From a virus (lineage: Duplodnaviria; Caudoviricetes), in the IMG/VR virus record IMGVR_UViG_3300047160_009226, positions 96,001-160,000 of that record: a stretch of 64,000 nucleotides of DNA. One strand, written 5' to 3'. A program made the position numbers and the translations under genes. How positions within the stretch are numbered: position 1 is the first letter of the stretch; each line of letters starts with the position of its first letter. The notes under the pieces are model-generated. The model made no database searches. It worked only from the letters and a program-made list of their open reading frames with translations, and had not been told where the DNA came from. This document shows, piece after piece, positions 2,561 through 60,158 of this stretch.

Positions 2561-2588
2561 ACTATACTCTAACCCTAGGGCCATTTTC
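2561..2588 (-). promoter_or_regulatory. putative promoter GAAAAT-N16-TATAGT
   Basis: Minus strand reads gaGAAAATggccctagggttagagTATAGT; it recurs upstream of other genes. Confidence 0.55.
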
Positions 2589-3614
2589 TCCAAAATCCCT
2601 CAGCAAAGTCTCACCGGGATCCAAAAACGGGGCCAACTCCTTCCCAAATAGAGCCTGGAAAGCAAACTCCCGACGCTTCTTCAAAGCCTTGTTGAACTGA
2701 TATGCAGACTCCACCTGTTTGAGTTGAGCCAACTCATCATCAGTAAAGCGATATCTCTTCTCAGTACCATCACTGTACTCAACCAGAGCACCCCAGGTCT
2801 GATCATGAATCCGAGCCACTTGCTCGTGGGCTACTTGGTTCACATTCTTGAACTTCCCAGGGGTTGTCACCAGATGATATGTGTCGTTGATCAGGAGAAC
2901 AGACCCAGAAACCACCTTAGTCCACCGCGGCTTCTTGGCCGGCAAAGGAGGAGTATACCCCACACTCTCCCAAATCTCCTCGATCGATACGGAGCCAGAC
3001 GCAATACCAGGACGCAACATGGAGTCAAAGAACCGCATGGGATACTGGCCGAATGGCTCACCAAACTTGCTGTAGTTCGTGATGATCTGAAGCGATGCAC
3101 TGAACAAAGTGCCGTCCTCAAATGACAAATACAGGTTTCCTTCCCAGTGGCCAGTGGCCCTCTCAAACCCACTGAAACGATCCGTGGCTTTCGAGACCTT
3201 GAAATCATCCTTGCGCTCGACAACCGGACCCAACTTACTCAATGTCCGATTGATAAAAGCCGTAAGGACGTTGTCGGCATTACGCTCGGCGATCTTCTGA
3301 ATGATCTCAGTTGCCTGCTCGTGTCGGTGATATGAAAAGGCCGGGCGGTCTTTCCAAATATATTGAATTCGAACACCGTTCGAGTCCATTACCAGTGACT
3401 CTCGCACGCCTTGAGGCGTACCAAAAGAAGAGTTCCGATAGAACTCCTCCAGAGTCTGATTCGGCTGACGTTTTGCCAGAAAGTGAGCAATCTGATGTTC
3501 AATTCGCCCTGAAAAGAGCGTCACAAACGATCGGCGCTCAGGCTCAATCAGAGCCCGAATCTCGGTCTCAAGCTTCTCGACATTGGCTTTGTTCAGTGTT
3601 GTCGTCTGCATCAC
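2562..3614 (-). CDS. hypothetical protein (350 aa)
   Basis: Long ORF with strong SD (AGGAGG) and an upstream promoter motif; visibly GC-richer than the flanks. Confidence 0.8.
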   Translation of the reverse strand: MMQTTTLNKANVEKLETEIRALIEPERRSFVTLFSGRIEHQIAHFLAKRQPNQTLEEFYRNSSFGTPQGVRESLVMDSNGVRIQYIWKDRPAFSYHRHEQATEIIQKIAERNADNVLTAFINRTLSKLGPVVERKDDFKVSKATDRFSGFERATGHWEGNLYLSFEDGTLFSASLQIITNYSKFGEPFGQYPMRFFDSMLRPGIASGSVSIEEIWESVGYTPPLPAKKPRWTKVVSGSVLLINDTYHLVTTPGKFKNVNQVAHEQVARIHDQTWGALVEYSDGTEKRYRFTDDELAQLKQVESAYQFNKALKKRREFAFQALFGKELAPFLDPGETLLRDFGENGPRVRV

Positions 3615-3632
3615 AAACTTAACCTCCTACTT

Positions 3633-3659
3633 ACTATACTATGTCGTCCTCGATTTTTC
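3633..3659 (-). promoter_or_regulatory. putative promoter GAAAAA-N15-TATAGT
   Basis: Minus strand reads gaGAAAAAtcgaggacgacatagTATAGTaagtAGGAGG. Confidence 0.65.
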
Positions 3660-3687
3660 TCAATGTTTCTCAATTTTCTGGTTAAAA

Positions 3688-3981
3688 TCAGACCGTCGCC
3701 TTCACGATAGCGTCGATCGCTCCGTTCTTGCCGCCCATGTTCATGTCATCGGTAGGCACCAAGCCGTTCCGTGGCTCATAGAAAGCACCGAGGAATCGAG
3801 CCGTTAAACCATGTCCCACCCATGCCTTCCAGGGATGGTAATCGGACTTGGTATTCTTATACTTCTCCAGCATGCCGAGGATCGTCTCTCCACGCTTGAC
3901 CAACAACAGCCTTCTCCGCCTCATACTTGGATTGTGCTCAACCAGTGTCAACCCTTTGTGAATCTTCTGCGTCTTCATCAA
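3688..3981 (-). CDS. hypothetical protein
   Basis: 97-aa ORF with AGGAGG SD and an upstream promoter motif. Confidence 0.75.
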   Translation of the reverse strand: MMKTQKIHKGLTLVEHNPSMRRRRLLLVKRGETILGMLEKYKNTKSDYHPWKAWVGHGLTARFLGAFYEPRNGLVPTDDMNMGGKNGAIDAIVKATV

Positions 3982-3997
3982 TTTGTCCTCCTAACTT

Positions 3998-4025
3998 ACT
4001 ATACTCTAAGAGTTTCAGATTTTTC
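3998..4025 (-). promoter_or_regulatory. putative promoter GAAAAA-N16-TATAGT
   Basis: Minus strand reads gaGAAAAAtctgaaactcttagagTATAGTaagttAGGAGG. Confidence 0.65.
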
Positions 4026-4060
4026 TCCTGTTTTTTAAGAATCATACGATAATAATACAT

Positions 4061-8245: not shown

Positions 8246-8247
8246 AA

Positions 8248-9123: not shown

Positions 9124-9166
9124 ATTAAACCTTTTTGCTTTAATAAAACTTCAATCTATCTAGAAA

Positions 9167-9850: not shown

Positions 9851-9872
9851 GATAAACCTCCGTAGTCTGTGT

Positions 9873-9995
9873 CTACTTGAAAACTAAACTGATCCGTTTG
9901 ATTTTCCCGCTAGGATATCCATCAATGATCTTATTATGAAGAGAAACTAACTCCTGTATATGTGTCTGTATAGAATCTATCCCAGAATACTTCAA
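9873..9995 (-). CDS. possible 40-aa small protein
   Basis: The TTG start overlaps the TGA of the upstream gene (TTGA); translation LKYSGIDSIQTHIQELVSLHNKIIDGYPSGKIKRISLVFK fills the intergenic gap. Confidence 0.3.
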   Translation of the reverse strand: MKYSGIDSIQTHIQELVSLHNKIIDGYPSGKIKRISLVFK

Positions 9996-19717: not shown

Positions 19718-20650
19718 TCAGTTTTTTGACAGTTCACTTTCTCTTATCCTCCTAAGACGTTGAGCTTCTCTCATCTTCTGTTTAGTCTTTTCACTATATT
19801 TCCTACCAAGTCGAGCCTTTGACATTTTCTGCTTACTCTCTTCACTGTGTTTCTTACCAACATTAGCTTCCCTCATTTTCTGCCGTGTTTCTTCACTAGC
19901 TTTTTTACCTATGTGAGCCTCTGACATGTTCTTTTTATGCTCTTCGCTAAACCTCTTGCCAATATGAGCCTCTGACATCTTCTTTTTACGCTCTTCACTA
20001 AACCTCTTACCAAGTCGGCATGCTGACATTTTCTTCTTATGCTCTTCACTTTGTTGCTTAATACGTTGAGATTCTGATAGATTCCTCCTATGTTCTTCAC
20101 TAAGTTTTTTACCAAGTTGAGCTTCTCTCATTTTCTGTCGTGTTTCTTCACTGACTTTTTTACCTCTATGAGCTTCTCTCATTTTCTGCCGTGTCTTTTC
20201 GTTGGCTTTCATACCTCGATGAGTTTCACTGATTTTTCTCAATGTTTCTTCTGACAAACGTTCTGATGAAGGCTGTATATTGTAACCAAACCGTGAATTC
20301 GCTGCTTTAAATCTCAAAAGGTACTCATCCTCAATAATTTTTAACAAATTCTTTTTATACACATACTCTAGAGTTTCATACACAAACGCTCCGGACCCAT
20401 GCCTATTCCACGCCTCTTGAAGTCGATGAGATTTATGTTTATTCTTAATCAAATCACGTCTATGTTGGCCCCAACGTTTAGAGAGGTTAACAGTACTACC
20501 AATATACATTTTTCCGTTTACCAGACACCGAATCTGGTATATTCCCATCTTAGATTTCTGATCATCATAAAGAGCTAAAATTTGATCCTTGCGATACCGA
20601 ATCTCCTTGGCCATCTCACAAAACAAGGGTCGAGAAACTTGATTAGTCAT
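19718..20650 (-). mobile_element. free-standing GIY-YIG homing endonuclease with NUMOD3 repeats
   Basis: [24 protein letters not shown] catalytic module followed by ten 17-aa SEExxxKM repeats. Confidence 0.9.
19745..20254 (-). repeat. ten degenerate 51-bp NUMOD3 tandem repeats
   Basis: [17 protein letters not shown] through [17 protein letters not shown], counted manually. Confidence 0.85.
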
Positions 20651-33700: not shown

Positions 33701-36700
33701 CGGCACGTGATCCGATCGCCACGGAATAATAACATGTGTCCGGGATCGACGCCACGAATCCAACCGCCGTATTTTCTCCGTTCGCATTCGCACCCGCATT
33801 CGCCCTCGTACCAATGGCAACTGACTGTGGACCGACCGCTGCAGAGCCGGCCCCAAAATGCTCACTGTTGGCCCCGCCGGGTGCTGAAAATCCCGTCGCA
33901 ATCAACGTGGAGCCGTCGAACGTCAGGTTGGCGGATTGTGCCAAGTTGTTACTTGCATCAGAATAAAACACCCGGTTCGCCGTGCTCCCCGCAATCGGGC
34001 CGCCAATGATCGCAGGAGCGACCCACGTATTATCACCACGGAGAAAAGTCGTAGTTCCAGGAGTTCCTGATGTACCTAAAACAGGAATAGGAACAGTGCC
34101 TGAAGCCAAATTGGATGCATTAAGAGTGGTCAGTCCAGTACCGGGACCGTAAAATCCTCCAGAACTATTAACACCGGACAAAACAGTAGCGCTACTATTC
34201 TGCCACTGTTGCAAATCAGCTGTCTGAGTGCTAAAAGCTTTGACTACCATCTGGACTTTATTACCAGCACCCGCAATAATCGCACTATCTATTACCTTCA
34301 AGCCCCAATCGTTGGCACCACCTGGAGCACTCACTGAGGCAGCTATGTTAGTTGTTGCACCTGAAACACCGGCATATAAACCAGTATGGCCATCTCCAGG
34401 TCCAGAAACGACACTATATAATCCGTAATTAGCTGAGCCAGCGACAGGATCAATAGTAGCACGAAGCGCAAAATTCTCTGTGGTGCTACCAGCAGCATAT
34501 GCGGCTACACCGATATTGATGCCGCCAGTCGTAGTACATGAGCCCATAACAGCATAACACCATCCACCAGGAGCAGTCCCTGTAACCTGTCCTAGAACCC
34601 CTGTTCCCGATGTGGTCGCGGCCACGCTAAAATGACCGGCGGTGTAAGTATCACTGCCAGTCACAGTCAATGCATTCTGAGTCGTATTCCAAGTGAAGTT
34701 ACTACTTGCAGCAAATCCACCTGAACCATTAGAATATTGGACTTGACCAGCGGCTCCAGTTGCAATTGTCTGCCAGGTATTATCACCACGAAGGAAAGTC
34801 GTGTTATTCGCAGTACCTGATCCCAGCCTTGCTGTAGCTAAAGTACCGGAAATAATATTCGTGGCATTAGTGGTATCTGTAGTAGCCGAAGGTGCAAAAG
34901 CTACGCCGTTGGTTTTAGTTACAGTTGTGGCAATAGTACCCGATCCACTACCCGTCACGTCACCAGTGAAAGTAATGGTTTGAGGGGCCGCAGCCATCTG
35001 GACGAAAGCAATCGGACTCGTACTTATTGTAATCGGACTGGGTGTGGTTTGCATCCACATTGTACCAGCCTGAGTAGTTCCTTCCTCTACAACAGTGTAT
35101 GTTCCTTCTAGTACCTCTGATGTTTCATCATAATCGGTAGCCCTAGTCAAAACCCATGCTACACTAGCAGATCCGACGTTGGTCACGGTAAAGATGCCGT
35201 TCGCAAAAGTGCTAGTCTCATTCTTCACGAGTACACGATCATTGAGGTTGGCCGTGACCCCATCCATGACCAACGGTGCGAATGTTCCAGTATTGGTAAG
35301 AGTCGAACCAGGACCAGAGCCGACAGGAGTATAAGTGGCGGTCAGGTTAACAGTCGTAGCAAATCGACATGAAGTCCTGGCAGATAGTCCAGAGGTAGCA
35401 CTGTCTACATAACTCTTAGTAGCTACATCAGACCCTCCAACGGGAGTCGATATTCCAGTAATAGTACCGCCAGTAATGGCCACAGTGGTAGAATTCTGAG
35501 CTGCCATTGATCCAAATGCAGTGCCATTATTGTATGAATGAACTATAGTAGCGAAACTATTAGCGGATGTGGTAACATCCCCAGTCATAGCAATCGTTTC
35601 CAATGTACTGCCGGAAAAGGCAAAGGTAGCTCCAGTCAGTACATCAGTAACATTAGCAGTAGCTGCTGTAGGATTGCCTACCAACGATGAAGCTAGTGAT
35701 TGCCGAAACAATACGTTAGTGATGCCATTGCTTGCTACAGAAATAGTACCAGTAGAATTGATAGGGCCTCCACTAAGACCCGTTCCGGTATTGACTTGAG
35801 TAACTGTGCCAGAAGTAAAAGGTTGCCATGTATTATCTCCTCGAAGAAATGTAGTGCTATTCGCAGCACCTGTTCCCAATACTGCAGTGGGAACAGTGCC
35901 CGATCCGAGATTGGATGCATTAAGACTTGTCAGACCTGCACCTGCACCAGCTATGTTCGTAGCTATCAACGTAAAAGTGGTAGGATTATAGTAAAAATGA
36001 GCGTTGTCTTGAGCCAGTGATATACTCGAATCCACATAAAGAATGGATTTAAAAGTACCACCAGTAACTGCGGATCCAATAGAAATAGAAGAAGCTGCAC
36101 CAACAATCTGCCAAGTATTATCACCCCGGAGAAATAGGGTAGAAGAAGGTGCATTAGTTCCCAGTGCAGTAAGAGGAACAATCCCAGAAACAAGAGCCGA
36201 AGCATTGAGATTGGTAAGACCAGCACCGCTGCCCGTAGGAGTGAGATAGTCCATATTAGCAACCGCTATAGATATAACACCAGTAGTGGTCGTGCCTTTC
36301 AAAAGTCCAGTAGTCAGAGAACCAATCGCTTGAGCATTTGGTAAAGAACTGTCAGTAGTTTGAAGAATGTAGGTAGCAGTCGAAGATCCCCCACCACTAC
36401 CACCTTGACTCAAAAAGGACATCTGAATGATGTCATTATTTGCGGGAAGTGCTCCTCCACTATTCGTATAAGATACAGGAAAAGACCACCAAGTCCCATT
36501 ATTAACTGGTGAACCATTTATCACATACTTACCAAATCTAGATGCGTCGCTCTTTTCCTGAATTTCAATGCCATCGCCAATCTGAATCTTAGCGAACATG
36601 GAACTGTTATCAGTATTGTCATCAGATATGGTACTAACGTTAACTGCTGTTGCTGTAGCCCATGCGGTTGTATTAATACCGATCCGTTGACTGACAACCA

Positions 36701-37277
36701 TCGTTGTTGCCGTCGTCCAGTTCCAAGTTTGGAGATAAATCGCATTACCTGGCGGTGGTGCCGGAACCGTCGGATTCAACACCAGCCCCAAGGTACTCAA
36801 AGCAACCGTGACATCCCCTGACGGCTGCGGGACAGCCGGAACCCCGAAGAACCCAATGGCCGCCGTAGAACCCGTCGATTCGAGCCGGAACCCTTCCCGA
36901 TCGACGCCAGTGTAATCACTTACGCGAATAACGACGCGACCCAGACGGGTCGCGTCGTTAGCGTTAGCCCACACTCCATCAATATTGCCAATAGACCGGA
37001 CTACAGATGCAGGTTGACCGTAGAGGAGCAGAAGAGGTGATGTCTGATTGGTAGCCCCGTTAATTTGTACGGAGCCGTGAAAGATAGGATTGACTGACGG
37101 TGCGTAATCCTGATTAGGAACGGCCGTGAGATAAGTCGTTCCGTTACCTTTCACTAATCCATTGATCAGTGATTGCGCAACTTTACTACCAGTACCGACA
37201 AAGAGCATCGCTCCATCGGTCCCGCCCTGGATCGTCGATCCGATGGCAAGCCTTTTGCCGGACGATGTCATGAGCAT
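27750..37277 (-). CDS. giant modular tail fibre (3175 aa) with a YadA-like head segment and the shared tip domain
   Basis: Many LNASNLxSGT..LGxGT..TTFLRGDNTW fibre repeats, two KSYVD..DGVT..DRVLxKN fibre domains, AVAVGY-type left-handed beta-roll repeats, and a C-terminal tip homologous to the three downstream genes. Confidence 0.9.
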   Translation of the reverse strand: MLMTSSGKRLAIGSTIQGGTDGAMLFVGTGSKVAQSLINGLVKGNGTTYLTAVPNQDYAPSVNPIFHGSVQINGATNQTSPLLLLYGQPASVVRSIGNIDGVWANANDATRLGRVVIRVSDYTGVDREGFRLESTGSTAAIGFFGVPAVPQPSGDVTVALSTLGLVLNPTVPAPPPGNAIYLQTWNWTTATTMVVSQRIGINTTAWATATAVNVSTISDDNTDNSSMFAKIQIGDGIEIQEKSDASRFGKYVINGSPVNNGTWWSFPVSYTNSGGALPANNDIIQMSFLSQGGSGGGSSTATYILQTTDSSLPNAQAIGSLTTGLLKGTTTTGVISIAVANMDYLTPTGSGAGLTNLNASALVSGIVPLTALGTNAPSSTLFLRGDNTWQIVGAASSISIGSAVTGGTFKSILYVDSSISLAQDNAHFYYNPTTFTLIATNIAGAGAGLTSLNASNLGSGTVPTAVLGTGAANSTTFLRGDNTWQPFTSGTVTQVNTGTGLSGGPINSTGTISVASNGITNVLFRQSLASSLVGNPTAATANVTDVLTGATFAFSGSTLETIAMTGDVTTSANSFATIVHSYNNGTAFGSMAAQNSTTVAITGGTITGISTPVGGSDVATKSYVDSATSGLSARTSCRFATTVNLTATYTPVGSGPGSTLTNTGTFAPLVMDGVTANLNDRVLVKNETSTFANGIFTVTNVGSASVAWVLTRATDYDETSEVLEGTYTVVEEGTTQAGTMWMQTTPSPITISTSPIAFVQMAAAPQTITFTGDVTGSGSGTIATTVTKTNGVAFAPSATTDTTNATNIISGTLATARLGSGTANNTTFLRGDNTWQTIATGAAGQVQYSNGSGGFAASSNFTWNTTQNALTVTGSDTYTAGHFSVAATTSGTGVLGQVTGTAPGGWCYAVMGSCTTTGGINIGVAAYAAGSTTENFALRATIDPVAGSANYGLYSVVSGPGDGHTGLYAGVSGATTNIAASVSAPGGANDWGLKVIDSAIIAGAGNKVQMVVKAFSTQTADLQQWQNSSATVLSGVNSSGGFYGPGTGLTTLNASNLASGTVPIPVLGTSGTPGTTTFLRGDNTWVAPAIIGGPIAGSTANRVFYSDASNNLAQSANLTFDGSTLIATGFSAPGGANSEHFGAGSAAVGPQSVAIGTRANAGANANGENTAVGFVASIPDTCYYSVAIGSRAGVTATGNQAVAVGYSATADSQGTAVGYGARAMSSGSTVVGISANATTYGVALGDQASVTGDYGVAIGEAATADLDGTSVGCQTVTGQYSVALGMLAKTLGSRSIAIGYSAGAGANATGENTAIGFYASIPDTCNYSVVIGSRASVTASDAVAVGYSATADSQGTAVGYNAVAAGEGMAVGFYANAVTSYCLALGNQSKANNTYAHALGISATADVFGLAVGYGATATSTAIAIGCQANAANNQLSFGGPNCSIKEIIFKTGQPWFTLDSPTTTFAITGAPAQTADLQQWHNSAATVLSGVTSTGGFYGPATGLTALNASNLASGTVPIPVLGASGTPGATTFLRGDNTWAAPAGSASSISIGSPITGSIANSILYADSSLALAQDNANISYNATTHTFTATNLAGSGTAITALNASNLASGIVPTAILGSGTATNTTFLRGDNTWQPFTSGAVTQVNTGAGLTGGPISSTGTISVVGNGITDTLFRQSAASSLVGNSTAITANVTDITLGATLVFSGSTLETAAMTGDVTTPINSFATTVHSYNNGTAFGSMAAQNSNAVAITGGTITGMPTPVGGSDVANKSYVDSATSGLSAKASCRSASTVNLTATYNNGTSGVGATLTNSGTLAVLSLDGVTAVTNDRVLIKNQTTTPTNGIYSVTNIGSGTVAWILTRTTDYNSSTTVAEGTYSVVEEGTTQAGTLWLETGQGPFVIGTTPILFTQMAAAPQTLTLTGNITGSGSGTIATTIAPGVVTNAMLAGSITASKLVGTDITTVGTITSGTWSGTPITAAYLANTAVTPGSYTNTNITVDQQGRITAASSGTGTGGGMAIGGAISGSTPNRVLYANVSNNLAESSSLAFDGTVLAIQSVASNAVSITLPSNSVNDWAPGASFFLRASYSTNASITGIAAGQDGEVHNIWNVGATNITLLHDSTSSLVGNRFYIPGGATVRLTPNTGLFIQYDLTSQHWRVEVPGGVAFNQAFINGSPNQVLYSGASTTIISSAGLTFDGTTLTATNLAGSGTAITALNASNLTSGTVATAVLGSGTANNTTFLRGDSTWQTITAVGSVGAAGQIQYSNGTGGFAASGNFTWNAAQSALVVTGSDTHIAGQFNVSATTSGTGVEGNVTGTAPSAWCYAVHGQCTTTGGYNIGVYGYADSSIIENMGVNGTTNGAANSTNYGVYAYSYGSGASRNTGLYGNVSGAVNSNTAALLLAPGGANDWGLDVTDSARIIGAGNKVQMIVRSFTTQTADLQQWQNSGATVLSGVTSTGGFYGPATGLTALNASNLGSGTVPIAVLGTGTANNTTYLRGDNTWQAVAASTTQAVNWSLGVNTPLTVGTDKTTWEIINWPCTLQSVKIAAKTAPTGTSVILDILYSTNGGTTFTSLWATNQANRPTMAAGSNSGTTSTFDTGTLAAGTLLRIDVIQIGSTIPGQDVSVQLNYSWQMIMQQIGPAGSDTQVQYNSAGILAGSANFTFNNATSTLTVGNLVGSGTALTGLNASNLASGTIPSARLPVPLVLSTGTITTSTQALSITGTFNNAATNFAAPLLVNMTNTASGANSLLLDLQIGGTSLFNVNTGGTISANGMVTNHSQGNLANPDITGLNTGNTLVLGANSVDPGPFLRLQPSGLISTRGSTNQGTTNLFEIHDSSENLRFAVGPAGALSIRDTGTTVRAGTTSYSASVAPFGALATPVAQGRLTCNSAAPISTADFTAVVTLYYLPFIGNTITLYNTTSNVFENVTISDSGISVSVSSLAANTNYDIFVQNNNGTTPTLVIGTAWTNDTTRATALYFSSGMYFSGSGANQNLRWVGTIRTTAAAGQIEDSMVRRYCWNAYNQVRRRIYFRYSIASWTLTNATQNTTITRPINNDINARVDFLYGGSPGDPFLYADGYYLGSATSAANVNFYGCASLDQTSGWTNACDYTPQVYATVLTTSVFKMTSYLALGHHWLTLLEALWNGTASSQTLTAYGSPYGGISAWIMA
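29840..34760 (-). repeat. internal duplication B (~650 bp; approx. 29840..30490 and 34100..34760; partial third copy near 32740..32850)
   Basis: Both copies encode GQxQYSNGxGGFAAS..WCYAVxGxCTTTGG..APGGANDWGL..TADLQQWxNS..GGFYGP; boundaries approximate. Confidence 0.8.
31520..35950 (-). repeat. internal duplication A (~950 bp; approx. 31520..32480 and 34980..35950)
   Basis: Both copies encode WQPFTSG..TVHSYNNGTAFGSMAAQNS..KSYVDSATSGLSA..QMAAAPQT, with long identical nucleotide stretches; boundaries approximate. Confidence 0.8.
33198..33798 (-). repeat. ~175-bp direct repeat in the YadA-like segment (33198..33369 and 33621..33798)
   Basis: gtacccgaccgccgtcccctgagaatccgccgt is shared; both copies encode AGANAxGENTA..SIPDTC..AVAVGYSATADSQGTAVGY. 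Confidence 0.85.
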
Positions 37278-37752: not shown

Positions 37753-38598
37753 TTATCCTCTTATCATAGAAAGCCCGAACCGAAATCCATTCCTTGAACC
37801 AAAAATCGATTCCGGATCGACTTTATACTCTCTCATCAACTTTCTAACCAACTCAAGGATTATATACCTTGATTTGGCCACGGCTCCACCAGTCCACTCA
37901 GGTGCACCACCTTCGGGCTCGAGTTGCATGGAGTTCAAAATATTAGCTATATTGTCGTCCGTGTATTTCTTTCCAGTCTCCCTCTGCTTTTTCATCAAAT
38001 CCCACATCTCCACGTATGCGGCACCATTACGATGGTCGGACAACATTTTTGGAACCGCAGCAAATGCCTTCTCTTTCTTGGGATTCTCTTCCTGGAACCT
38101 AAGCACCTCGTAAGGACTCGGCTCGGACGACTGTGGCAGAAACCACTCGCCGATATCGCCTTCCTCACCACTACCTACCCCACGATCGATTGACCAGATC
38201 TTGGGTCGGTTCAGAAACCGCTTTCGCTCGTTGAAAATATTGGCGATCTCTCGACTCAGGTTCATTTTAAAATAACCGTCGAAAGTTTGTGGTGCACTCC
38301 CTGCCGCCACCTGCTTCTGATACCGACGAATATAGTCGTAAACAGAAGGTCGAGTCTTCTTTTTCGGAATGTGTGTAAAAATGTGTTCAATGAAATCGTT
38401 AGCTCTGTCTTCAGCATCCCCAATAGGAAGACCAGTAGCCCTTGCGAGCGTACGAGCAGCGTAAGTGTAAAAGTTAAAGTCTTGCTTTCCCATCGGGAGT
38501 TCATCGAGACCAAGTTCCTCGACTATCTCGGGCATGATCTCCATATGAATCCAACGATTGAGACCTTCACCAGTCCCAGGTCCTGATCCTGCAGCCAT
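37753..38598 (-). CDS. divergent ECF-type sigma-70 family factor
   Basis: Region 2-like DAEDRANDFIEHIF and FDGYFKMNLSREIANIFNERKR; region 4-like YTDDNIANILN..GAVAKSRYIILELVRK. Confidence 0.6.
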   Translation of the reverse strand: MAAGSGPGTGEGLNRWIHMEIMPEIVEELGLDELPMGKQDFNFYTYAARTLARATGLPIGDAEDRANDFIEHIFTHIPKKKTRPSVYDYIRRYQKQVAAGSAPQTFDGYFKMNLSREIANIFNERKRFLNRPKIWSIDRGVGSGEEGDIGEWFLPQSSEPSPYEVLRFQEENPKKEKAFAAVPKMLSDHRNGAAYVEMWDLMKKQRETGKKYTDDNIANILNSMQLEPEGGAPEWTGGAVAKSRYIILELVRKLMREYKVDPESIFGSRNGFRFGLSMIRG

Positions 38599-38644: not shown

Positions 38645-38672
38645 ACCATACCCCACGAGTCATGAAATTTTC
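38645..38672 (-). promoter_or_regulatory. putative promoter GAAAAT-N16-TATGGT (variant)
   Basis: Minus strand reads agGAAAATttcatgactcgtggggTATGGT, in the intergenic space upstream of the sigma-like gene. Confidence 0.45.
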
Positions 38673-38775
38673 CTAAAAAATCTCACAACTCGTCGAAATT
38701 CCAAACTGTCTATCGATCCGATCCCTCCATTAAACCATAAATCTCAATCGAATGCAAGCCCGATTCACCGACCAC

Positions 38776-41220: not shown

Positions 41221-42588
41221 CTAAACTCTAATTGAAATAGAACCCCTCTGCACCAGCAAAGCTTTTCTCCTAGTTCCCAATCGCTCGTAAGTTTCTCGCG
41301 TCACATATACCTTAGGCCACGGATATGCGCTAAACCTTATTTCTGCCACTTCAGTCCTCATGTCTGTTCCACAAAAACGACATTCATCCCGTTCAATCAA
41401 GTCCAACTTATGGCAACCGGGACATTTGTAAGTCTTTGCCGCTAAAATCTTGTTCTCCCTTGGAATCTTACTTGAAACCAACCAAAAAGCTCGAAACATG
41501 GATTCCAGTCTCTGTATCCGTGCTGGAATGGAAGGAGGAGCCATTCTCAATGTATGCGCAATCTCCTCGATTTGCAAACCAGCCATCAATAGAGTATAAA
41601 AATCCATCCACGTTCGCCGCTCTTTAATCATGATCGAAGGATCATAATTCGGGTTAGAGAAATCCTTCTGTGTAATAAAATCTCCTGTAAACATATCGAC
41701 ATACTGCGCATGATCCACCGGATCTTGTGTAATATAATCCACTAGTAAATAATTGGGAACCATTGGGCAAATTCCAATGTCATTAAGTTCAGGAGTTGTT
41801 ACCCTACTATTGAAACGTCCTCCTTGAAGATAGAAAACATTCATCTCTACCAATGTTGGAATTTCAATAGTTCCTGGAGGAAGAAGAGTGCATAACTTTT
41901 CAAAATCGCGACGCACAATAGTCCTGATTGGTTTCTGTAATCTCAAATATCTCTCCCAATCTTCCATAACCTCCTGCCTGATGAGATCGTCCTCAAGAAA
42001 CTCATCCTGATTGAGATCGTATAAACAGGATGCAGCTGTTCTGCCGTGTTTATCACGATCGTGTTCTCTGTCTAAAGAAAAAGCACCAGTTGTCACCTTC
42101 TTGCTTCTCCTTGACTTATATGTGTGCACATACCGTTGAATCGGCTTCAACAAAAAGTTGCGCCACGGTGAGACCAGTGGATTATATCTCTCCACCCATC
42201 TTGCCTTCACCCACTTTAGAGACATTTCCTGTACGATATCTTCAACATCATCATTCAACACTCTTGTACTGCGGACCAGTTGACATAACCAATCACGGCC
42301 ATTGCTCGATGAAAAAGCCTGCTCGAATGTTTGACCAGTGAATCCATAATTCTCAATCAACAACCGATATCTATCTCTGTAGAATTCCTCCCATGAGTCA
42401 TATGTTTTATTCAACCTCGCAAGAATGTTAATAGCTTCCTCACTGTAAAGCGAAAAACCATCTATAAAAATTTTCAAAATCTCAGCTTCCTCACCCTCCC
42501 TGGAGCATTCCCTCGCCAATAACTCAAGAATGTTCACACTCTCTGGAGTGAGGATCCACATCTGTGCTTTCTCCCGGTTGGAGTCCAT
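41221..42588 (-). CDS. large divergent sigma-70 family factor with an internal insertion and a C-terminal zinc ribbon
   Basis: DDVEDIVQEMSLKW..YNP..WRNFL (region 2), LLMAGLQIEEIAHTLRM..RIQRL (region 4 HTH), CPGC..CRFC. Confidence 0.65.
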   Translation of the reverse strand: MDSNREKAQMWILTPESVNILELLARECSREGEEAEILKIFIDGFSLYSEEAINILARLNKTYDSWEEFYRDRYRLLIENYGFTGQTFEQAFSSSNGRDWLCQLVRSTRVLNDDVEDIVQEMSLKWVKARWVERYNPLVSPWRNFLLKPIQRYVHTYKSRRSKKVTTGAFSLDREHDRDKHGRTAASCLYDLNQDEFLEDDLIRQEVMEDWERYLRLQKPIRTIVRRDFEKLCTLLPPGTIEIPTLVEMNVFYLQGGRFNSRVTTPELNDIGICPMVPNYLLVDYITQDPVDHAQYVDMFTGDFITQKDFSNPNYDPSIMIKERRTWMDFYTLLMAGLQIEEIAHTLRMAPPSIPARIQRLESMFRAFWLVSSKIPRENKILAAKTYKCPGCHKLDLIERDECRFCGTDMRTEVAEIRFSAYPWPKVYVTRETYERLGTRRKALLVQRGSISIRV

Positions 42589-42750
42589 TCAATCATCAGA
42601 ATAAAAACCTTCTCTCGGTTTCAACGAGAAACCAATCGTAAATGCAAAAAAGCACACAACACAATCTTGATCCTACCCATTACAGATAGTATCAGATTTA
42701 GAATACCAAGGTCTAATTCAATAAATAAGAGAAAGCCGAAGAATAACCAA

Positions 42751-44046
42751 TCACAAAACCTTGACGTTCGATATCCCTTGTACCAATCGACGTAGATGCC
42801 CCTCAGAGACCCGCTCAAGAGACCTTAAAGAATATGCACGATCGCCCATCTTGATCAATAGTGGCACCTTTACTACATTCTGTACATGCGCTGCCTGAAA
42901 GATCGCCAGGTGGAGTCTACCTGCGTCTTCTGCTGTAATCCCTGACACCAAGAGCGTTACATCGTCTCTTTTAGGCGAAGCCTTCTCTGGCTTTGGCAAA
43001 TCCTTTGTTGCTGGATCGAGATCATCAATTCCTGTCAGATTCCCCCAATTATCTCCAATCTCAATATCAACTTTCAGTGGAATATTCCATTTAGGAATGG
43101 TAGGGAGGATTTTCCCTTTAGGAGTAAGCGTCATTTCCCGGCCGATGTCCCGTAAAATTTCATACATTGCTGCGGATTCACGGATCTCAAAGTCCAATTC
43201 ATCATGAACTGTCAACATCATTTTCACGTCATCACATAACTTTTGCTTTGTGAGAAAAGAATCAACACGAGTCATGGCTATCTTCAACAGATCAGCACTC
43301 GATCCCTGAATCGGGCTGTTACATGCCGTTCTGTGACAGAATCCATGACCCATCTTCTTTCCGGCTTTCTTCCCTTTCCCCGTACCTACATTCTCATTGG
43401 CCTTGGCAATCATCGCCTTCATCTCACGTTTACGTCGAAAGAATGTCCAGACATGTCCATGTTCCTTATAATACTCTTCCTGATTCTTTGTCCATTTTTT
43501 ATAAGTCGGAACAGCACCACACCACTTCCTCCATGCAATAACTGCTTCAGCGTATGTTAGTGTTGTCAAATGCCAAAATGTATCAACACCAGAAAGATAT
43601 AGATTTCCGAAGTTGCCCATCTTAGCAATGTCTCGTTGAGCCTTATCCGGTTCGTCAGTTCGGAACATAACACGAGCCATCTCAAAATGTAAATCTCTGT
43701 CCTCCTGAAATGCTTTGACCCAGACAGGCTCACCGGACAGAAGTGCTGCCACTCGAAGCTCGATCCCAGCAAAGTCGATGCATGCCCACTTGAATCCTGG
43801 TCTAGCTATGAATGCTTCTCGAATATTGATCCCAGGGCCGATCTTGATGGTCGTCTCTTCTTTGTCACAAATAGGAAAATACAGACAACCATCACAAGAA
43901 GGACGTACACAGTAATTTGCTTTGTCACGGATATAAAAATACTTCTCCTCCGGATGCTGAAGTTTTTTCTCGGGATCAGGATAGTATGTCAAGAGCTGCT
44001 TGGGAGGCTTGACATCACCAACTTCAAGGGTTTTCTTCTCAGCCAT
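42751..44046 (-). CDS. polA: family A DNA polymerase, C-terminal (catalytic) subunit
   Basis: Motif A IDFAGIELRVAALLSGE, motif B RDIAKMGNFGNLY, NSPIQGSSAD, motif C LTVHDEL; it has its own SD (AGGAG). Confidence 0.92.
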   Translation of the reverse strand: MAEKKTLEVGDVKPPKQLLTYYPDPEKKLQHPEEKYFYIRDKANYCVRPSCDGCLYFPICDKEETTIKIGPGINIREAFIARPGFKWACIDFAGIELRVAALLSGEPVWVKAFQEDRDLHFEMARVMFRTDEPDKAQRDIAKMGNFGNLYLSGVDTFWHLTTLTYAEAVIAWRKWCGAVPTYKKWTKNQEEYYKEHGHVWTFFRRKREMKAMIAKANENVGTGKGKKAGKKMGHGFCHRTACNSPIQGSSADLLKIAMTRVDSFLTKQKLCDDVKMMLTVHDELDFEIRESAAMYEILRDIGREMTLTPKGKILPTIPKWNIPLKVDIEIGDNWGNLTGIDDLDPATKDLPKPEKASPKRDDVTLLVSGITAEDAGRLHLAIFQAAHVQNVVKVPLLIKMGDRAYSLRSLERVSEGHLRRLVQGISNVKVL

Positions 44047-44064
44047 GACCTATCTCCTAGTTAT

Positions 44065-44238
44065 TTACACATTTTTGACCTGATATCCAGGAAGCACTGG
44101 CCCAACAAATCCAGGTGATGATGGGTCATGAAGCCAAAAATATACAATTAGATTGGGATCAAGCAATCCTAATCTAACCATCAACTCAACATCAACCTCT
44201 CTCTGGCCAAACCATTTCATCATTTCTTTTGTTGGCAT
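44065..44238 (-). CDS. 57-aa ORF between the two polA halves
   Basis: Manual translation MPTKEMMKWFGQREVDVELMVRLGLLDPNLIVYFWLHDPSSPGFVGPVLPGYQVKNV; it fills the gap. Confidence 0.45.
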   Translation of the reverse strand: MPTKEMMKWFGQREVDVELMVRLGLLDPNLIVYFWLHDPSSPGFVGPVLPGYQVKNV

Positions 44239-44261
44239 TGTTTTTCAATCATTTACTATAG

Positions 44262-45494
44262 TTATTTATTCGGGTCTTCAATCTTCACCCGCCTAACTTT
44301 AGCCGTCTTATAATCACTGGCGCTGGTAATTGCCTGCGGGTTCATTGGAGTGTACAGACTGTCGCCCTTGTCCACTCCTCCTGATGAAAATCTACCCGTA
44401 GGAGCCCCAATCGAGACGAACCGAAAAACCACCGAAGGACTGTCTTCAGTGGCAGTCAACAAAGGATCAACATAAGTTGTTATTTCCTTCACAATCGATC
44501 GATAAAAAAGAATGTCATCGACAATAGGATGCTCTTTCGCCAAAGGTGTAAGTGCTTTGGCGTTAGTCTCGTAATTCACCTGCTTCTCGTTCTGAGTTCT
44601 CTTCAATGGCACTCCCTTCTCTCTCAGAACCCGAGCCACTTCCTTGTTGGAGTCCAAGTCAAACTCTTCCTTCAAGTCGTCATAAATACCAGAAGAGACG
44701 TCATCGACCCATCGCTCCAGATCCTTATGTGCCTGCTGCAAAAATGCCCGATCAATCGTAATCCGATTCTCTGTCATTCGGCCCAACGTGCCAAGAAGTC
44801 TATGCTCCATATCGGCAATGAATCCTTGCTCTCGATCCACTTCTGGCTTACAAATATCTAAGACTGCCAATGAAAAGACTGGGTCGGCTGCCGCATATAG
44901 TGTAGCTTCTTCAGGATTCGAAAGAGAAAAGTCAATCTCCTTGGATCGCTTCCCTTTCCTAATCCCAGGAACATCATGAATGAGGTTCATCTCCTGCTTA
45001 CAAATCTCTAAGGCCGCATCCTTAAGGTTGAATTGTTTTTTATCAGAGTCGTACAGCCAACGATATACCATAGCATCGTTGAGGCTTTTTAGGGTGGTAT
45101 CACGATATACCCCCTTGTTCCGAAGAATCGTTCCCTCAAACTCCCAGTTATACACAACCACTAGTCTATGTTCAATCTCGTCCAACAACATCTGCCATAC
45201 TTGACTTGGATCCAGGTTCATTTCTGGAAAATTCATATGCTTGATCGGGACATATACCCCCTCCCTTTCTGTGAATGCCAAACAAAAACCGCACACAGAT
45301 TCCCATGTGCGGCTTAAGTCCTTCGTTTCAAAGTCGATCGAGATTCTATTAAATGCGTGCCCTCTCTGAAAGAATTCCCGAAGCTCTGACAAGGTCGTGA
45401 TCTGATACAATCTCCTCTCCGTCATCCACTCTTTCCACAAATGAGACTCCGCGAACGCTTTCTGAGTCTCTAAGGAAAAAGTATCAACTTGCAT
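44262..45494 (-). CDS. polA: family A DNA polymerase, N-terminal subunit (3'-5' exonuclease + thumb)
   Basis: Exo I ISIDFET, Exo II YNWEFE, Exo III YAAAD, FDLDSNKEV (thumb), TGRFSS and NPQAI (NLQNIP equivalent), then a stop. Confidence 0.9.
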   Translation of the reverse strand: MQVDTFSLETQKAFAESHLWKEWMTERRLYQITTLSELREFFQRGHAFNRISIDFETKDLSRTWESVCGFCLAFTEREGVYVPIKHMNFPEMNLDPSQVWQMLLDEIEHRLVVVYNWEFEGTILRNKGVYRDTTLKSLNDAMVYRWLYDSDKKQFNLKDAALEICKQEMNLIHDVPGIRKGKRSKEIDFSLSNPEEATLYAAADPVFSLAVLDICKPEVDREQGFIADMEHRLLGTLGRMTENRITIDRAFLQQAHKDLERWVDDVSSGIYDDLKEEFDLDSNKEVARVLREKGVPLKRTQNEKQVNYETNAKALTPLAKEHPIVDDILFYRSIVKEITTYVDPLLTATEDSPSVVFRFVSIGAPTGRFSSGGVDKGDSLYTPMNPQAITSASDYKTAKVRRVKIEDPNK

Positions 45495-47022: not shown

Positions 47023-47700
47023 TTAAGAATTCGCTTGAGGCAATCGTCTCCACATGCGAGGACTCTCATCGTTGATTCTACTACGACGTGCTAACATGGC
47101 CTGCCAAACACGACGCTCACGCTGGTCCTGTTCGTACTCGGAATATTCACGCCAAACTGTCATGCACTTATCATTATAAAGCTTGCGGAGTCCATGATCT
47201 CGGATCTGTCTGATCCGTTCCCTCGTAAGCTTAAAGATGCGGCCAACCTCCATAAGCGTGTAAGTATCTCCAGTCTCAATACCATACAAGAGTCTAAGAA
47301 TAGTTGCCTCACGTTCCTGAACGAACCTCATCGCCTCGGTAAGTTTAGCCGCAATGGCTTGTCGCTCACTCTGCTCTTCATACTCTGTAAGCCAATAGTG
47401 CTTGTCAATCACATCCTCAGACCAGAGTGGAAAAGCACCGACCACAGGATCACGATGATATGCTTTGCCATATGCTATACTGATCTGCCATAGAGCGTGT
47501 TTAGCACACCAACTAGAAAGTTTGGTACGTTTGATGTTATTCGGATCGTAGGTACGGTAAGCAAAAAGTATACCATACCAAGCCTCCTGAATCAAATCAT
47601 TGATAGAGATAGATTGATAATACGTTGAAGCCTTGGCGCGTTTAGCTGCCCAGATCGCTAAACGACGGTGCTTGATCAAGAACTCCTGTTCAGTTTCCAC
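47023..47700 (-). CDS. RpoD/RpoS-like sigma-70 family factor (regions 2 and 4)
   Basis: DLIQEAWYGILFAYRTYDP..KLSSW; EREATILRLLYGI..TLMEVGRIFKLTRERIRQI..LRKL. Confidence 0.9.
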   Translation of the reverse strand: METEQEFLIKHRRLAIWAAKRAKASTYYQSISINDLIQEAWYGILFAYRTYDPNNIKRTKLSSWCAKHALWQISIAYGKAYHRDPVVGAFPLWSEDVIDKHYWLTEYEEQSERQAIAAKLTEAMRFVQEREATILRLLYGIETGDTYTLMEVGRIFKLTRERIRQIRDHGLRKLYNDKCMTVWREYSEYEQDQRERRVWQAMLARRSRINDESPRMWRRLPQANS

Positions 47701-52398: not shown

Positions 52399-52932
52399 TT
52401 ATTCGACAATCATTGATGCCATACGACTATTGTACAGTTCAAGTCCTTTCTTAACCTCGTCTACGGAGAACCTCTTGAGTTCTCCCCCTGACCCTTCCAC
52501 TATAATCGGATATGGACTCACCATCGGACCCTCCTTATGCAACCTTTCCCCGACAATCTGGTACTTCGAACCATTACGCATAATCGTGCGACCCAAATCC
52601 GATGGCGATAGACCGTACTTAGTTGCAATCTCAATGAAATTGTTCTGAATAACGGAGTTCCCTGTCGGTTTAATCACATTCGATTGCGTCACATCTCCTG
52701 ACGCATGCACTTGAGTATAAAAACCATCGGTGCTCAAGGTCTGAACCACAATCCGTGCCTTTTCAGTAACCGAATGCGTGAGACCTGTACTCGCCACAAA
52801 CAAGTCAAACCTGATCGACGTCTCCCATCGGTCCTCGTCCTCATTCAATCCACACTCTATCTCCGTAATCGTCCAACGATTTCCCGTGACACTCAAGAAT
52901 ATGTCACCCACAACAATCGACTTCACAATCAC
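52399..52932 (-). CDS. two-domain hypothetical protein, paralog of 53009..53572
   Basis: Shares VGDxF..RWETS and KYGLxPxDLGR..YxIVG..PI..G with its neighbour. Confidence 0.75.
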   Translation of the reverse strand: MIVKSIVVGDIFLSVTGNRWTITEIECGLNEDEDRWETSIRFDLFVASTGLTHSVTEKARIVVQTLSTDGFYTQVHASGDVTQSNVIKPTGNSVIQNNFIEIATKYGLSPSDLGRTIMRNGSKYQIVGERLHKEGPMVSPYPIIVEGSGGELKRFSVDEVKKGLELYNSRMASMIVE

Positions 52933-52955
52933 GCCATTCCCCCCAAGAAAAAATG

Positions 52956-52995
52956 ATTCACGCCGACCATAGAACTATACCACGTCGGCGTGAAT
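52956..52995. terminator. 12-bp perfect inverted repeat (attcacgccgac-16nt-gtcggcgtgaat) flanked by T/A tracts; terminator- or operator-like
   Basis: Stem arms at 52956..52967 and 52984..52995; CATTTTTT follows on the minus strand. Confidence 0.5.
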
Positions 52996-53000
52996 TTTTC
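52974..53000 (-). promoter_or_regulatory. putative promoter GAAAAA-N15-TATAGT
   Basis: Minus strand reads ggGAAAAAttcacgccgacgtggTATAGT. Confidence 0.6.
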
Positions 53001-53008
53001 CCCTGGAT

Positions 53009-53572
53009 TTACACCAAACCAGCCTTCGCTTTCTCCGCAGTGATCTTATAGACACCACCACGCCTACCCTGAATCAGAATCGGCATCTTCCAGTTACGCG
53101 GTTTAGCACCGACGATCGTATAGTTCTTGGTACGATTCTTGCCAAGACTGATTTTGCGGCCCAGATCCGTCGGAGCCAAGCCGTACTTAGCTGCGTGTTG
53201 ACGGAAGTCGGCTTCCCATTGCCTACGCTTCTGATCAACCGATGGTGTAGAAGGAAGCGGCGCTCCAGCCAGAGGTCCGGTCGTCACAACCGAAGAAGGC
53301 GTTGTTGTTATACCATCTGAGGAAGTCGCTGCCTTCCTCACGCGTACAAAACCGCCTTCTTTCAGTCTCTGTACGAAGTCACGGCCCTTACTCGAGAGCT
53401 GAAGGTTATTTCCAGACCCGTAACTCGAATTCCATGCCACAGACGTCTCCCAACGATTGTCTACCATGCTGAATTCGAACCAGATCTTGACTACCTCCAG
53501 CGTGGTTGCAGAATCAGCACTCACAAATCGATCGCCCACCTCAACCGAAAGAACTGCAAGGATGTCAGCCAT
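53009..53572 (-). CDS. two-domain hypothetical protein, paralog of 52399..52932
   Basis: See neighbour; SD GGAGG; visibly GC-rich. Confidence 0.8.
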   Translation of the reverse strand: MADILAVLSVEVGDRFVSADSATTLEVVKIWFEFSMVDNRWETSVAWNSSYGSGNNLQLSSKGRDFVQRLKEGGFVRVRKAATSSDGITTTPSSVVTTGPLAGAPLPSTPSVDQKRRQWEADFRQHAAKYGLAPTDLGRKISLGKNRTKNYTIVGAKPRNWKMPILIQGRRGGVYKITAEKAKAGLV

Positions 53573-53591
53573 TGATCGTCACCTCCATGTT

Positions 53592-53618
53592 ACTATACTC
53601 GCCCATCCGTGGTTTTTC
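53592..53618 (-). promoter_or_regulatory. putative promoter GAAAAA-N15-TATAGT
   Basis: Minus strand reads gcGAAAAAccacggatgggcgagTATAGTaacatGGAGG. Confidence 0.65.
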
Positions 53619-53627
53619 GCATAAATT

Positions 53628-56000: not shown

Positions 56001-56004
56001 GAGA

Positions 56005-56568: not shown

Positions 56569-56590
56569 AATATTCCTCCCTTTTTTAAAA

Positions 56591-58108: not shown

Positions 58109-58353
58109 TATAATTGCCTCATGTCAACTGGTATGAACCTCTCCGTGACTCCTAATACCACGGCCCTCTGAGAAAAAATGCCCAAAAAAATAAGATCCAT
58201 ACCAATAAAAATAGGAATAGAGTTTCTCTATCCCTAGTACACGACATACCAACAGTCTATGGGCTACACAAACCGAAGTTTTAGACGGATTAGCGAGGAG
58301 GAAAATAAGACAGTGCTTTTTCTAACCAATCTAGATAAAATCATTTTATATTA

Positions 58354-59871
58354 TCAATAAGAAATAAAATCCAAATGAAATTGATATACATCGTAGAACT
58401 CAGCTGCAACATCACAAGGATCTGACATGACCCAATCCACGGCTGCTTCTTGAAATAAGTCCGAAGTCGCACCATCTGTCAAAAATCCATCATCGAGTAT
58501 AGCCGTCCCGATATCGGGATAATCGTTCCAAGGAAACCACACACGATCCGCATTAATAAGAGTCCGATAGTTCGTCGTAACAGGAAAGACACCAACAACT
58601 TGTGGAAAGTTCAATACTACCATTGACACTGTCGTTTCTTCTTCCTGCGTTGGCCACCACGGACCTCGAAATGTCCAATTAGTGCGGGGTAAAGAAAATG
58701 CACAGTCCAAACTAAATTTCAATTCACCATGAGAATTAAAATAAGAAGCGAGAAATTGTTTAGATATCGACTTGAAGATCGCCCCGTCCAATATCCATCC
58801 CTTCGCATACATGAGCACTCGCGTCGAATTCACCAGATTAGCGTGATCAAAATGAGCTTTCAATGCGTTGACAATGATCAAGTGATCTTCCCAATTCGTT
58901 GTCTTTAAAAACTCAACACCCACTCCAGGCAGACAAGCAGGTTCCATCTCACGGGTATATGGATTAGATTCTCCTACAGGAATAAACTCAGGGACATCTC
59001 GTATCGAAGCTTGCCTGATGTGTTCACCCGCTGCTATAATTCCACCCCGCCGTTCCCAGTCATCCCGTGCATCCGAAGGATCCGCCCCAAAGTCCGCAGG
59101 CGGTGGCCCGGGATAATCCATCAGGCCCCTCTTGATTGCGTCCTGAAGCCAACGGGCCCCCGAGGTCATAGGCATCCGTGGATCGCCATTAGCCTTACTC
59201 TCCCCCATAATGATATTAGGTACCCCCTTCACTCCCATGGGGAAATAGTCGAATTGATATCCCTCAGGAATCGGTGCAATCCAGAATGGTTTAGTTTGAT
59301 CAAAAGCTGAAGGATTTGTCTTTGGTACTAAACTTCTCAACCACGTTGGAGATTGTACATCTGGAACACTATGTGCTGCATAAAATGTATTGGGAGGAGC
59401 AGGAAGTTTTCTCGTTAACAACTCAGATGGTGGACCTGGTGGAAGAGACAGTAAAACACTTGGAGTAACTGAAGGAGGAGGTGATAATGATTCATTTGAT
59501 ATATAGTCCGGAGTCCATGCATTCCACCACCACAAACAGTGAACTGTTTTAGTAGTTTCATCAAATCCTACAGAAAGACCAATGGCATTATGAAGTGGAA
59601 AAACTTTAATAGGCCGTGCTCCATAATTTGCATCTTTATACATACAAAGAATCGGCACAGGAAACGACTGAACCTCCTTCTTGGAAAGCAAAGAATAACT
59701 GATCCGACTTCCTATAGGATAGATCTCCTCCTGTATAAGAATACTTCCAGATGATTTCGGTAAGTTCACTTTAAACGCAGGAATACTATACTGAGCTGCC
59801 TCTGTAATGACAGTCAGTGATTCTCCAGAAGGAAGTGTAACTACTGATGGTCTCCGTCCAATAACCGGCAT
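58354..59871 (-). CDS. Pro-rich protein, paralog family member B
   Basis: WWWNAWTP and STRVLMYAKGW. Confidence 0.8.
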   Translation of the reverse strand: MPVIGRRPSVVTLPSGESLTVITEAAQYSIPAFKVNLPKSSGSILIQEEIYPIGSRISYSLLSKKEVQSFPVPILCMYKDANYGARPIKVFPLHNAIGLSVGFDETTKTVHCLWWWNAWTPDYISNESLSPPPSVTPSVLLSLPPGPPSELLTRKLPAPPNTFYAAHSVPDVQSPTWLRSLVPKTNPSAFDQTKPFWIAPIPEGYQFDYFPMGVKGVPNIIMGESKANGDPRMPMTSGARWLQDAIKRGLMDYPGPPPADFGADPSDARDDWERRGGIIAAGEHIRQASIRDVPEFIPVGESNPYTREMEPACLPGVGVEFLKTTNWEDHLIIVNALKAHFDHANLVNSTRVLMYAKGWILDGAIFKSISKQFLASYFNSHGELKFSLDCAFSLPRTNWTFRGPWWPTQEEETTVSMVVLNFPQVVGVFPVTTNYRTLINADRVWFPWNDYPDIGTAILDDGFLTDGATSDLFQEAAVDWVMSDPCDVAAEFYDVYQFHLDFISY

Positions 59872-60101
59872 TTGTCAACAATCTCCTTCCATAATGCTCG
59901 GATCACCCTTACCACACTTTTAGGCATCCAGAACGGAGAGGTCAGTACCGTAAGAACCAACCCGATGATAAAAATCGTATACCTTGTCGTAGGCGATATT
60001 TTCTCTACCACCATCTTCATGTTCTGAATCGTCACAATCGCTGCCAGCGACATGCACACGAATACGTAAATCACCAAAATTTGCAAGATCGATCCCATCA
60101 T
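59841..60101 (-). CDS. small two-TM membrane protein
   Basis: Two hydrophobic segments; upstream promoter variant. Confidence 0.65.
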   Translation of the reverse strand: MMGSILQILVIYVFVCMSLAAIVTIQNMKMVVEKISPTTRYTIFIIGLVLTVLTSPFWMPKSVVRVIRALWKEIVDKCRLLDGDHQ

Positions 60102-60131
60102 TCTCTCCCGAAGTAGAAAATCTCTCTCTAT

Positions 60132-60158
60132 ACTATACCCAGCTTTCGGGAGAAATTC
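60132..60158 (-). promoter_or_regulatory. putative promoter GAATTT-N15-TATAGT (variant)
   Basis: Minus strand reads gaGAATTTctcccgaaagctgggTATAGT. Confidence 0.5.

Follow-up and report, generated by a model that had tools for sequence, protein, structure and literature searches.

The early promoters of phage T4 are read by the host sigma-70 and keep a recognizable TTGACA-like −35 box. The middle promoters of phage SPO1 are read by gp28 and follow AGGAGA-N17/18-TTTNTTT. The SigW promoter of Bacillus subtilis is TGAAAC-N16-CGTA(TA), and promoters of extracytoplasmic function (ECF) sigma factors are generally defined by an AAC-containing −35 box, a CGT-containing −10 box and a fixed spacing between the two. 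In phage phiEco32, the middle and late promoters are read by gp36 and carry AATGTA centered at −11.5 (PMC12276001). Here, we describe a recurrent element, GAGAAA-N17-TATAGT, in a 64,000-nucleotide window (bases 96001–160000) of the single 200,689-bp IMG/VR soil virus record IMGVR_UViG_3300047160_009226, which is estimated to be 91% complete. Coordinates below are those of the window unless they are given as genome positions. The element very probably constitutes a functional promoter class of the sigma-70 family, judging from its architecture, placement and conservation, and this class is conserved, specific to one phage clade and distinguished by an unusual −35 box. A literature search on the two hexamers together found no description of it.

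A sequence-only reading of the window had reported seven copies of GAAAAW-N15/16-TATAGT, five exact and two variant, and all seven are present. The pattern matches the window exactly five times, always on the minus strand (2561, 3633, 3998, 52974 and 53592), where 0.05 matches are expected from 100 shuffles; the two variants are GGAAAA-N17-TATGGT at 38645 and GAGAAT-N17-TATAGT at 60132. That all copies share the minus strand is true but merely mirrors gene direction, as ~95% of the open reading frame (ORF)-based gene calls across the genome lie on that strand. Shifting the upstream box by two bases, away from the −10 box, relative to the first proposal gives a better reading, GAGAAA followed by a 17-bp spacer. 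This spacing is found in 21 of the 24 copies that we count genome-wide, with 18 bp in two and 16 bp in one.

Aligned on the −10 box, the consensus of the 24 sites begins with an A-tract near −42 (roughly −43 to −40), continues through GAGAAA(W)(W) and a spacer ending in (G/A)G to TATAGT-A, and is followed a few bases on by aTGg. The G that precedes the −10 box in the window copies does so in every genome copy, and G-13, T-12, A-11, T-10, G-8 and T-7 are all invariant (24/24). The −10 box itself is TATAGT in 23 sites and TATGGT in the remaining one. Within the −35 box, position 1 is G in 22 of the 24 sites, position 2 is A in 19 and positions 4–6 are A in 23–24. Because positions 1–3 are typically G-A-G and never TT, a canonical region 4.2 cannot have its optimum in a −35 box of this type. 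The geometry is nonetheless that of the sigma-70 family, and the predicted start site is a pyrimidine-purine step in the aTGg consensus, 6–7 nt downstream of the −10 box.

Each window copy lies just upstream of a start codon, as the sequence-only reading had noticed, ending 16–60 nt before it with a Shine-Dalgarno sequence (a purine-rich ribosome-binding site, RBS) in between. The copy at 2561..2590 (minus strand, as are all those that follow) is GAGAAA-N18-TATAGT, has the stop codon of the upstream gene inside its −10 box and ends 60 nt before the ATG at 2500. At 3633..3661, GAGAAA-N17-TATAGT ends 18 nt before the GTG at 3614, with AGGAGG in the leader, and at 3998..4027 GAGAAA-N18-TATAGT ends 16 nt before the start codon at 3981. 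The variant at 38645..38673 ends 46 nt before the ATG of a possibly sigma-like gene encoding 281 amino acids (aa). The copy at 52974..53002 (GGGAAA-N17-TATAGT) is nested in a hairpin with a T-run (about 52935–53005); that at 53592..53620 (GCGAAA-N17-TATAGT) stands directly behind the ribonucleotide reductase gene, and 19 nt separate its end from the ATG at 53572. Finally, the variant at 60132..60160 carries the palindrome GGAGAA-T-TTCTCC at its −35 box and ends 30 nt before the ATG at 60101.

These seven copies belong to a genome-wide set rather than to a small regulon. When the genome was scanned with a scoring matrix built from the 24 sites themselves, and hence partly circular, those 24 sites scored at least 19 (the cut-off for the class) and the next best 14.7, with no match on the other strand and 0–1 in shuffled sequence; exactly seven of the 24 lie in the window. 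A simple search for GAGAAA-N16-18-TATAGT with at most one mismatch gave 27 coding-strand matches in the genome and one on the other strand, and 22 of these 27 fall within the 6.2% of the genome left intergenic by the gene calls. Among intergenic words of the genome, GTATAGT and GTATAGTA show the strongest enrichment. All 24 sites are on the coding strand, almost all are intergenic, and the distance from their end to a start codon is 16–76 nt, except in two or three cases where crude gene calls make it long.

The copies are clustered along the genome, with 16 in a small-gene accessory region (73.6–100 kb), four in the replication block (134.6–156 kb), three at 186–187 kb and one at 198 kb. None of the 24 lies in the head and packaging block that holds the terminase and portal genes, or in the blocks of fibre-like and large proteins. 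The sites instead head short cassettes of small accessory genes and operons for DNA metabolism and replication, a distribution that suggests an early or middle class.

Other promoter types are hard to find in this genome. Canonical TTGACA-N17-TATAAT sequences are no more frequent than chance on the coding strand or between genes, with the best ones lying inside genes, and a scan with this consensus does not flag the motif copies. No TTGACA stands at the usual spacing from the −10 box of the copies, in agreement with the sequence-only reading, and the TTGACA-containing sites of the genome share no common −10 box. Strategic places lack canonical or extended −10 promoters, except for one TGTTATAAT at genome position 174650. 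The word GATTGA was considered as a promoter element and set aside, its occurrences being mostly GAT-TGA stop contexts. A Pfam search detected no phage RNA polymerase domain, which argues for use of the host core polymerase.

We also asked how common the motif is in cellular genomes. The strict form GAGAAAWW-N12-GAGTATAGTA, which six genome copies match, gave 65 single matches in 185,579 bacterial species genomes, scattered over AT-rich taxa, where ~70 are expected by our own arithmetic, and 25 single matches in IMG/VR, likewise no more than chance. Because these bacterial matches are single, scattered and at chance level, the consensus does not appear to be a common cellular one, although the strict pattern is too narrow to show a degenerate host class.

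The motif recurs in related metagenomic phage contigs, which were reached via homologues of DnaB (81–90% identical) and of a MoxR-like ATPase (77%). Coding-strand copies number nine in the 18.9 kb of contig L116, four in L111, two in L110 and one in L112. Across 10 orthologous pairs of sites, identity is 0.98 in the −10 box, 0.85 in the −35 box and 0.83 in the GAG before the −10 box, compared to 0.64 in the rest of the spacer and 0.48 in the flanks. Such a gradient indicates that both boxes are under purifying selection relative to the spacer and flanks. The TATGGT variant before the 281-aa gene is identical at the orthologous site of L112, and the copy at 53592 has orthologous copies in L110 and L111. 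More distant contigs with a DnaB ~50% identical (L114 and L115) carry at most a degenerate copy, namely GAGAAC-N17-TATCGT after the reductase gene of L114. The contigs reached through ribonucleotide reductase (L005–L010) lack the motif and belong to unrelated phages. IMG/VR searches with the terminase, a 69%-identical sigma (P0002), alignments of a 455-aa sigma described below and a DnaB alignment returned no true relatives, and four soil DNA runs gave short, low-depth and mostly identical pieces with no usable promoter variation.

Taken together, these sites probably form the main promoter class of the phage clade. In the mechanism that we propose, transcription would be carried out by the host core RNA polymerase, its alpha subunit would bind the A-tract near −42 as it binds UP elements, and the class would act early or middle in infection, a timing that we infer from gene content. 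With G and A selected at −35 positions 1 and 2, G-13 and G-8 invariant and A-6 nearly so, the reader likely has a non-canonical specificity, as a dedicated sigma factor would.

The sequence-only reading had credited the phage with three sigma factors, a count that proves imprecise. One of 225 aa is solid, one of 455 aa is supported by profile comparison and the 281-aa protein is a weak case, while a fourth, region-4-like ORF lies outside the window. The 455-aa protein (41221..42588, minus strand) resembles ECF/SigH sigma factors. A profile of its family matches a solved SigH structure in both the sigma-2 and sigma-4 regions (E = 9e-6), and the protein itself has a weak Pfam match to region 2 and protein-atlas features that resemble viral region-2 clusters. 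Its confidently predicted structure (predicted local distance difference test, pLDDT, of 85) shows helical sigma-like parts, a beta-rich insert of SH3/Tudor-like type that separates region 2 from region 4, and a C-terminal CxxC...CxxC zinc ribbon; the protein also has an N-terminal extension. A whole-chain Foldseek search with this model returned nothing significant, and a profile built from three sequences found no match in the PDB. The family comprises ~25 clusters at 50% identity, and this record is its only representative in IMG/VR. The protein is 70% identical in L111 and 60% identical in L112, both of which carry the motif.

Upstream of the 455-aa gene (about 42600–42650, minus strand) is a conserved hairpin with a GRAAC-containing loop, whose stem is TCTCG/CGAGA here and CTCTC/GAGAG in L111 and L112; a conserved block comes next, directly ahead of the start codon. 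This hairpin and block could be an RNA operator or an unrecognized promoter.

The 225-aa protein (47023..47700, minus strand), encoded downstream of the copy at 52974, is an RpoD-like sigma with a canonical region 4.2 and a divergent region 2. Its −35 helix, TRERIRQI, is identical to that of aligned primary sigma factors, and several of the aromatic residues that read the −10 box are lost from its region 2. Recognition helices of the TRERIRQI type contact TTGACA. The gene is missing between conserved neighbors in L110–L113, even though L110–L112 carry the motif. Given this canonical helix and its absence from the syntenic site in relatives that keep the motif, the 225-aa sigma was rejected as the dedicated reader. 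It is an accessory gene, and because the phage has no TTGACA-type promoter class, its targets may be host promoters.

We tentatively favor the conserved, phage-encoded 455-aa ECF/SigH-like sigma as the reader, while placing this assignment somewhat short of an even chance. The 455-aa sigma would first be made from a weak or unrecognized host-type promoter, or by read-through, and would then drive the class. Several observations weigh against it. Its gene sits in an operon downstream of the motif copy at 52974 and no host-type promoter is recognizable before it, leaving a cascade without a first step. In T4 and SPO1, comparable cassettes of small genes belong to the early class and depend on the host sigma. 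L112 has the same −35 box, yet its version of the 455-aa protein departs at several positions of the putative recognition helix. A-11 and T-7 are retained in TATAGT, as would suit a −10 reader of the housekeeping type, and only two relatives allowed a check that the 455-aa sigma and the motif occur together.

The proposal that the copies form a regulon read by an unusual sigma fits this evidence, and the choice that the sequence-only reading offered between a host and a phage sigma has been narrowed by the rejection of the 225-aa sigma and by the recount of the sigma-like genes. A serious rival, though a less likely one, is that a host sigma already present at infection reads the sites directly as true early promoters. 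Such a sigma could be the primary one of an uncharacterized soil host whose −35 preference is unusual, or a primary sigma for which a strong −10 region and the UP-like A-tract make up for a poor −35 box. A host reader would suit a phage without a detected polymerase of its own in which the motif is the only detectable promoter class, as well as a motif that precedes every sigma-like gene examined (the operon of the 225-aa and 455-aa genes, the 281-aa gene and a 256-aa gene of L116), heads small accessory-gene cassettes and is absent from the structural modules. TATAGT also equals TATAAT at five of six positions and is set at a 17-bp spacer. However, GAGAAA lacks the TT of TTGACA, and its G1 (22/24) and A2 (19/24) are selected for, beyond mere tolerance; G-13 and G-8 are invariant although housekeeping sigmas take little account of them. 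The strict motif, a pattern of low sensitivity, is in excess in no bacterial clade, and alignments show that the helix reading the −35 box is identical in the primary sigmas of distant phyla. We consider it improbable that these are genuine early promoters read unaided by a soil-bacterium primary sigma that prefers GAGAAA over TTGACA. If that were true, it would be the second lineage-level departure from a near-universal bacterial promoter grammar, after that of the Bacteroidota, and one revealed first by a phage.

A foreign −35 box beside a housekeeping-like −10 box, with selection on both, would also be expected if the host primary sigma read the −10 box while a phage protein read GAGAAA in place of region 4, in the manner of MotA and AsiA on the middle promoters of T4. 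The appropriating protein, which might enter the cell together with the DNA, could be either a sigma-4-like module or an activator, and the phage encodes several divergent helix-turn-helix or sigma-4-like proteins. Nevertheless, the upstream box lies at the exact 17-bp spacing of sigma-70 promoters (the MotA box of T4 is centered near −30), no MotA/AsiA homologue was seen and none was searched for, and the explanation shares the missing first step of the 455-aa sigma; we regard it as doubtful. Equally, another phage sigma-like protein could be the reader, either the 281-aa protein, autoregulated from the copy at 38645, or the region-4-like ORF at genome 39635–40318. The 281-aa gene (37753..38598, minus strand) is directly preceded by a motif copy here, in L111 and in L112, which is the usual arrangement of an autoregulated ECF sigma, and profile comparison weakly links its product to the sigma-2 region of the 455-aa family (probability 45%, E = 2e-4). 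This weak evidence is what backs the sigma-like label that the gene had received from sequence alone. Yet the protein has no sequence match in Pfam, PHROG or the PDB and is only 37% identical between phages with the same promoter consensus, and the region-4-like ORF sits in a virion block, which suggests a late role; a reader of either kind seems to us a poor prospect. Very improbable is the idea that the sites are not promoters at all and represent a repeated signal of another kind that only looks like one, for instance a site for recombination, packaging or protein binding. Some copies do overlap hairpins and adjoin variable genes, but their orientation is strictly that of the genes, they end 16–76 nt before start codons that bear an RBS, the two boxes stand 17 bp apart across unconserved spacers, and A-11 and T-7 are invariant.

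Hairpins accompany some of the copies. At 52974, pairing of the spacer with the leader, and of the A-run in the −35 box with a T-run further down, forms what looks like the terminator of the upstream gene; three pairs are kept relative to L111 through compensatory changes on both sides. A transcript begun at this promoter would lack the 5' arm of the hairpin, and would therefore escape termination. Such fusion of promoter and hairpin is clear at 52974 and at several other genome copies. By a loose criterion, a hairpin with a T-run lies near nine of the 24 copies as against 20% of random places, and stem-loops at the 5' end of the predicted leaders are not more stable than those at random places (mean −6.3 vs −5.3 kcal/mol). 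Hairpins were thus not found to be a general property of the class. At the copy at 60132 (60101–60160, minus strand), pairing is possible between the spacer TCTCCCGAAAG and the leader CTTCGGGAGA, in which the RBS lies, and we speculate that the RBS is hidden in read-through transcripts but not in those started at the promoter.

Several of the genes beside the copies vary between relatives. Tandem paralogues at 52399–52932 and 53009–53572 (minus strand; 29% identical, E = 2e-15) each have their own promoter copy, and relatives have one or two such genes. Contig L116 carries the 256-aa sigma-like gene (323–1093 of that contig) behind a motif copy, and this gene is not found in the present genome. 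Inteins are present in a 717-aa gene of L112 (9900–12053) and in the ribonucleotide reductase of L115 (2922–7436). The differing mobile and accessory content of the relatives suggests that cassettes may be shuffled beside the promoters.

The window holds a block of DNA-metabolism and replication genes, including ribonucleotide reductase, dCTP deaminase, SNF2 and DnaB helicases and a split family-A polymerase, together with the sigma-like genes, glycosyltransferases and very large fibre-like proteins. The family-A DNA polymerase (42751–45494, minus strand) is divided into an exonuclease/N-terminal gene (44262–45494) and a polymerase gene (42751–44046) separated by a small ORF, and this split is common to the relatives. 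A GIY-YIG/NUMOD3 homing-endonuclease gene (19718–20650, minus strand) lies within the large-protein block. A 3175-aa protein (27750–37277, minus strand) has a YadA-head repeat match and is probably a fibre; its gene comes after the 281-aa gene and a 150-aa gene that are presumably driven by the copy at 38645. An 8-kb megablast against cultured phages gave no match. The terminase is only ~24% identical to that of Tunturiibacter phage Tunturi_5, whose genome has no motif match at up to one mismatch. A host signal was sought from DUF6065, ClpS and tRNA-Leu, none of which was usable.

With 24 copies in this genome and one to nine in each close relative examined, the class offers a transcription-unit map for an uncultured clade of jumbo phages, indicating which genes may be switched together and where cassettes begin. 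It also frames a puzzle, namely how transcription starts in a phage without a detected polymerase of its own or detectable host-type promoters. As the GAGAAA −35 box matches no promoter specificity that we found, pairing it with its reader would give a new orthogonal pair of sigma and promoter that could be used as a genetic part or, as a less likely outcome, would point to a bacterial lineage whose housekeeping promoter is non-standard.

Compared to the sigma-70/SigA promoter (TTGACA-N17-TATAAT), the class shares the two hexamers, the 17-bp spacer, five of six −10 positions including A-11 and T-7, the predicted start 6–7 nt downstream and the UP-like A-tract. It differs in the −35 box, which matches at three of six positions and lacks the TT, in the invariant G-13 and G-8, and in having no TG of an extended −10 element; because of this −35 box, it is not a canonical housekeeping promoter. 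ECF promoters such as that of SigW are similarly stringent in both boxes, with GAAA forming the core of the −35 box and GTATA lying in the −10 region, and the candidate reader has ECF/SigH-like regions 2 and 4. However, the spacing from the GAAA core to GTA is 2 nt shorter here, and GAGAAA(W) and GTATAGT fall outside the usual definition of an ECF promoter, containing neither AAC in the −35 box nor CGT in the −10 box. The candidate reader also departs from ECF sigmas in its length of 455 aa, its insert and its zinc ribbon.

The classes read by SPO1 gp28 and phiEco32 gp36 are alike in being clade-specific, with a high-information consensus unlike that of the host, and in using the host core polymerase with a divergent phage sigma, as we propose here. 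The purine-rich GGAGA(AA) also recalls the −35 box of SPO1. The sequences differ, the −10 box here being TATAAT-like, and the early genes of those phages have canonical host promoters, of which none is detectable in this genome. The early promoters of T4 are set apart by their TTGACA-like −35 box, where the present class has GAGAAA. Gene swaps beside the promoters are anecdotal here, comprising the 225-aa sigma that is absent from L110–L113 and the 256-aa gene of L116 that is absent from this genome. In other respects, the T4-type early promoters and their promoter early stem-loop (PeSL) cassettes resemble the present class (PMC2839356; PMC4122927), as both present a single strongly conserved promoter in many copies, with an A-rich stretch upstream, placed before small variable genes in plastic regions. 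The fusion to a stem-loop or terminator that is frequent in the T4 cassettes is clear at some of the copies here, and here too the variable genes beside the copies differ between relatives.

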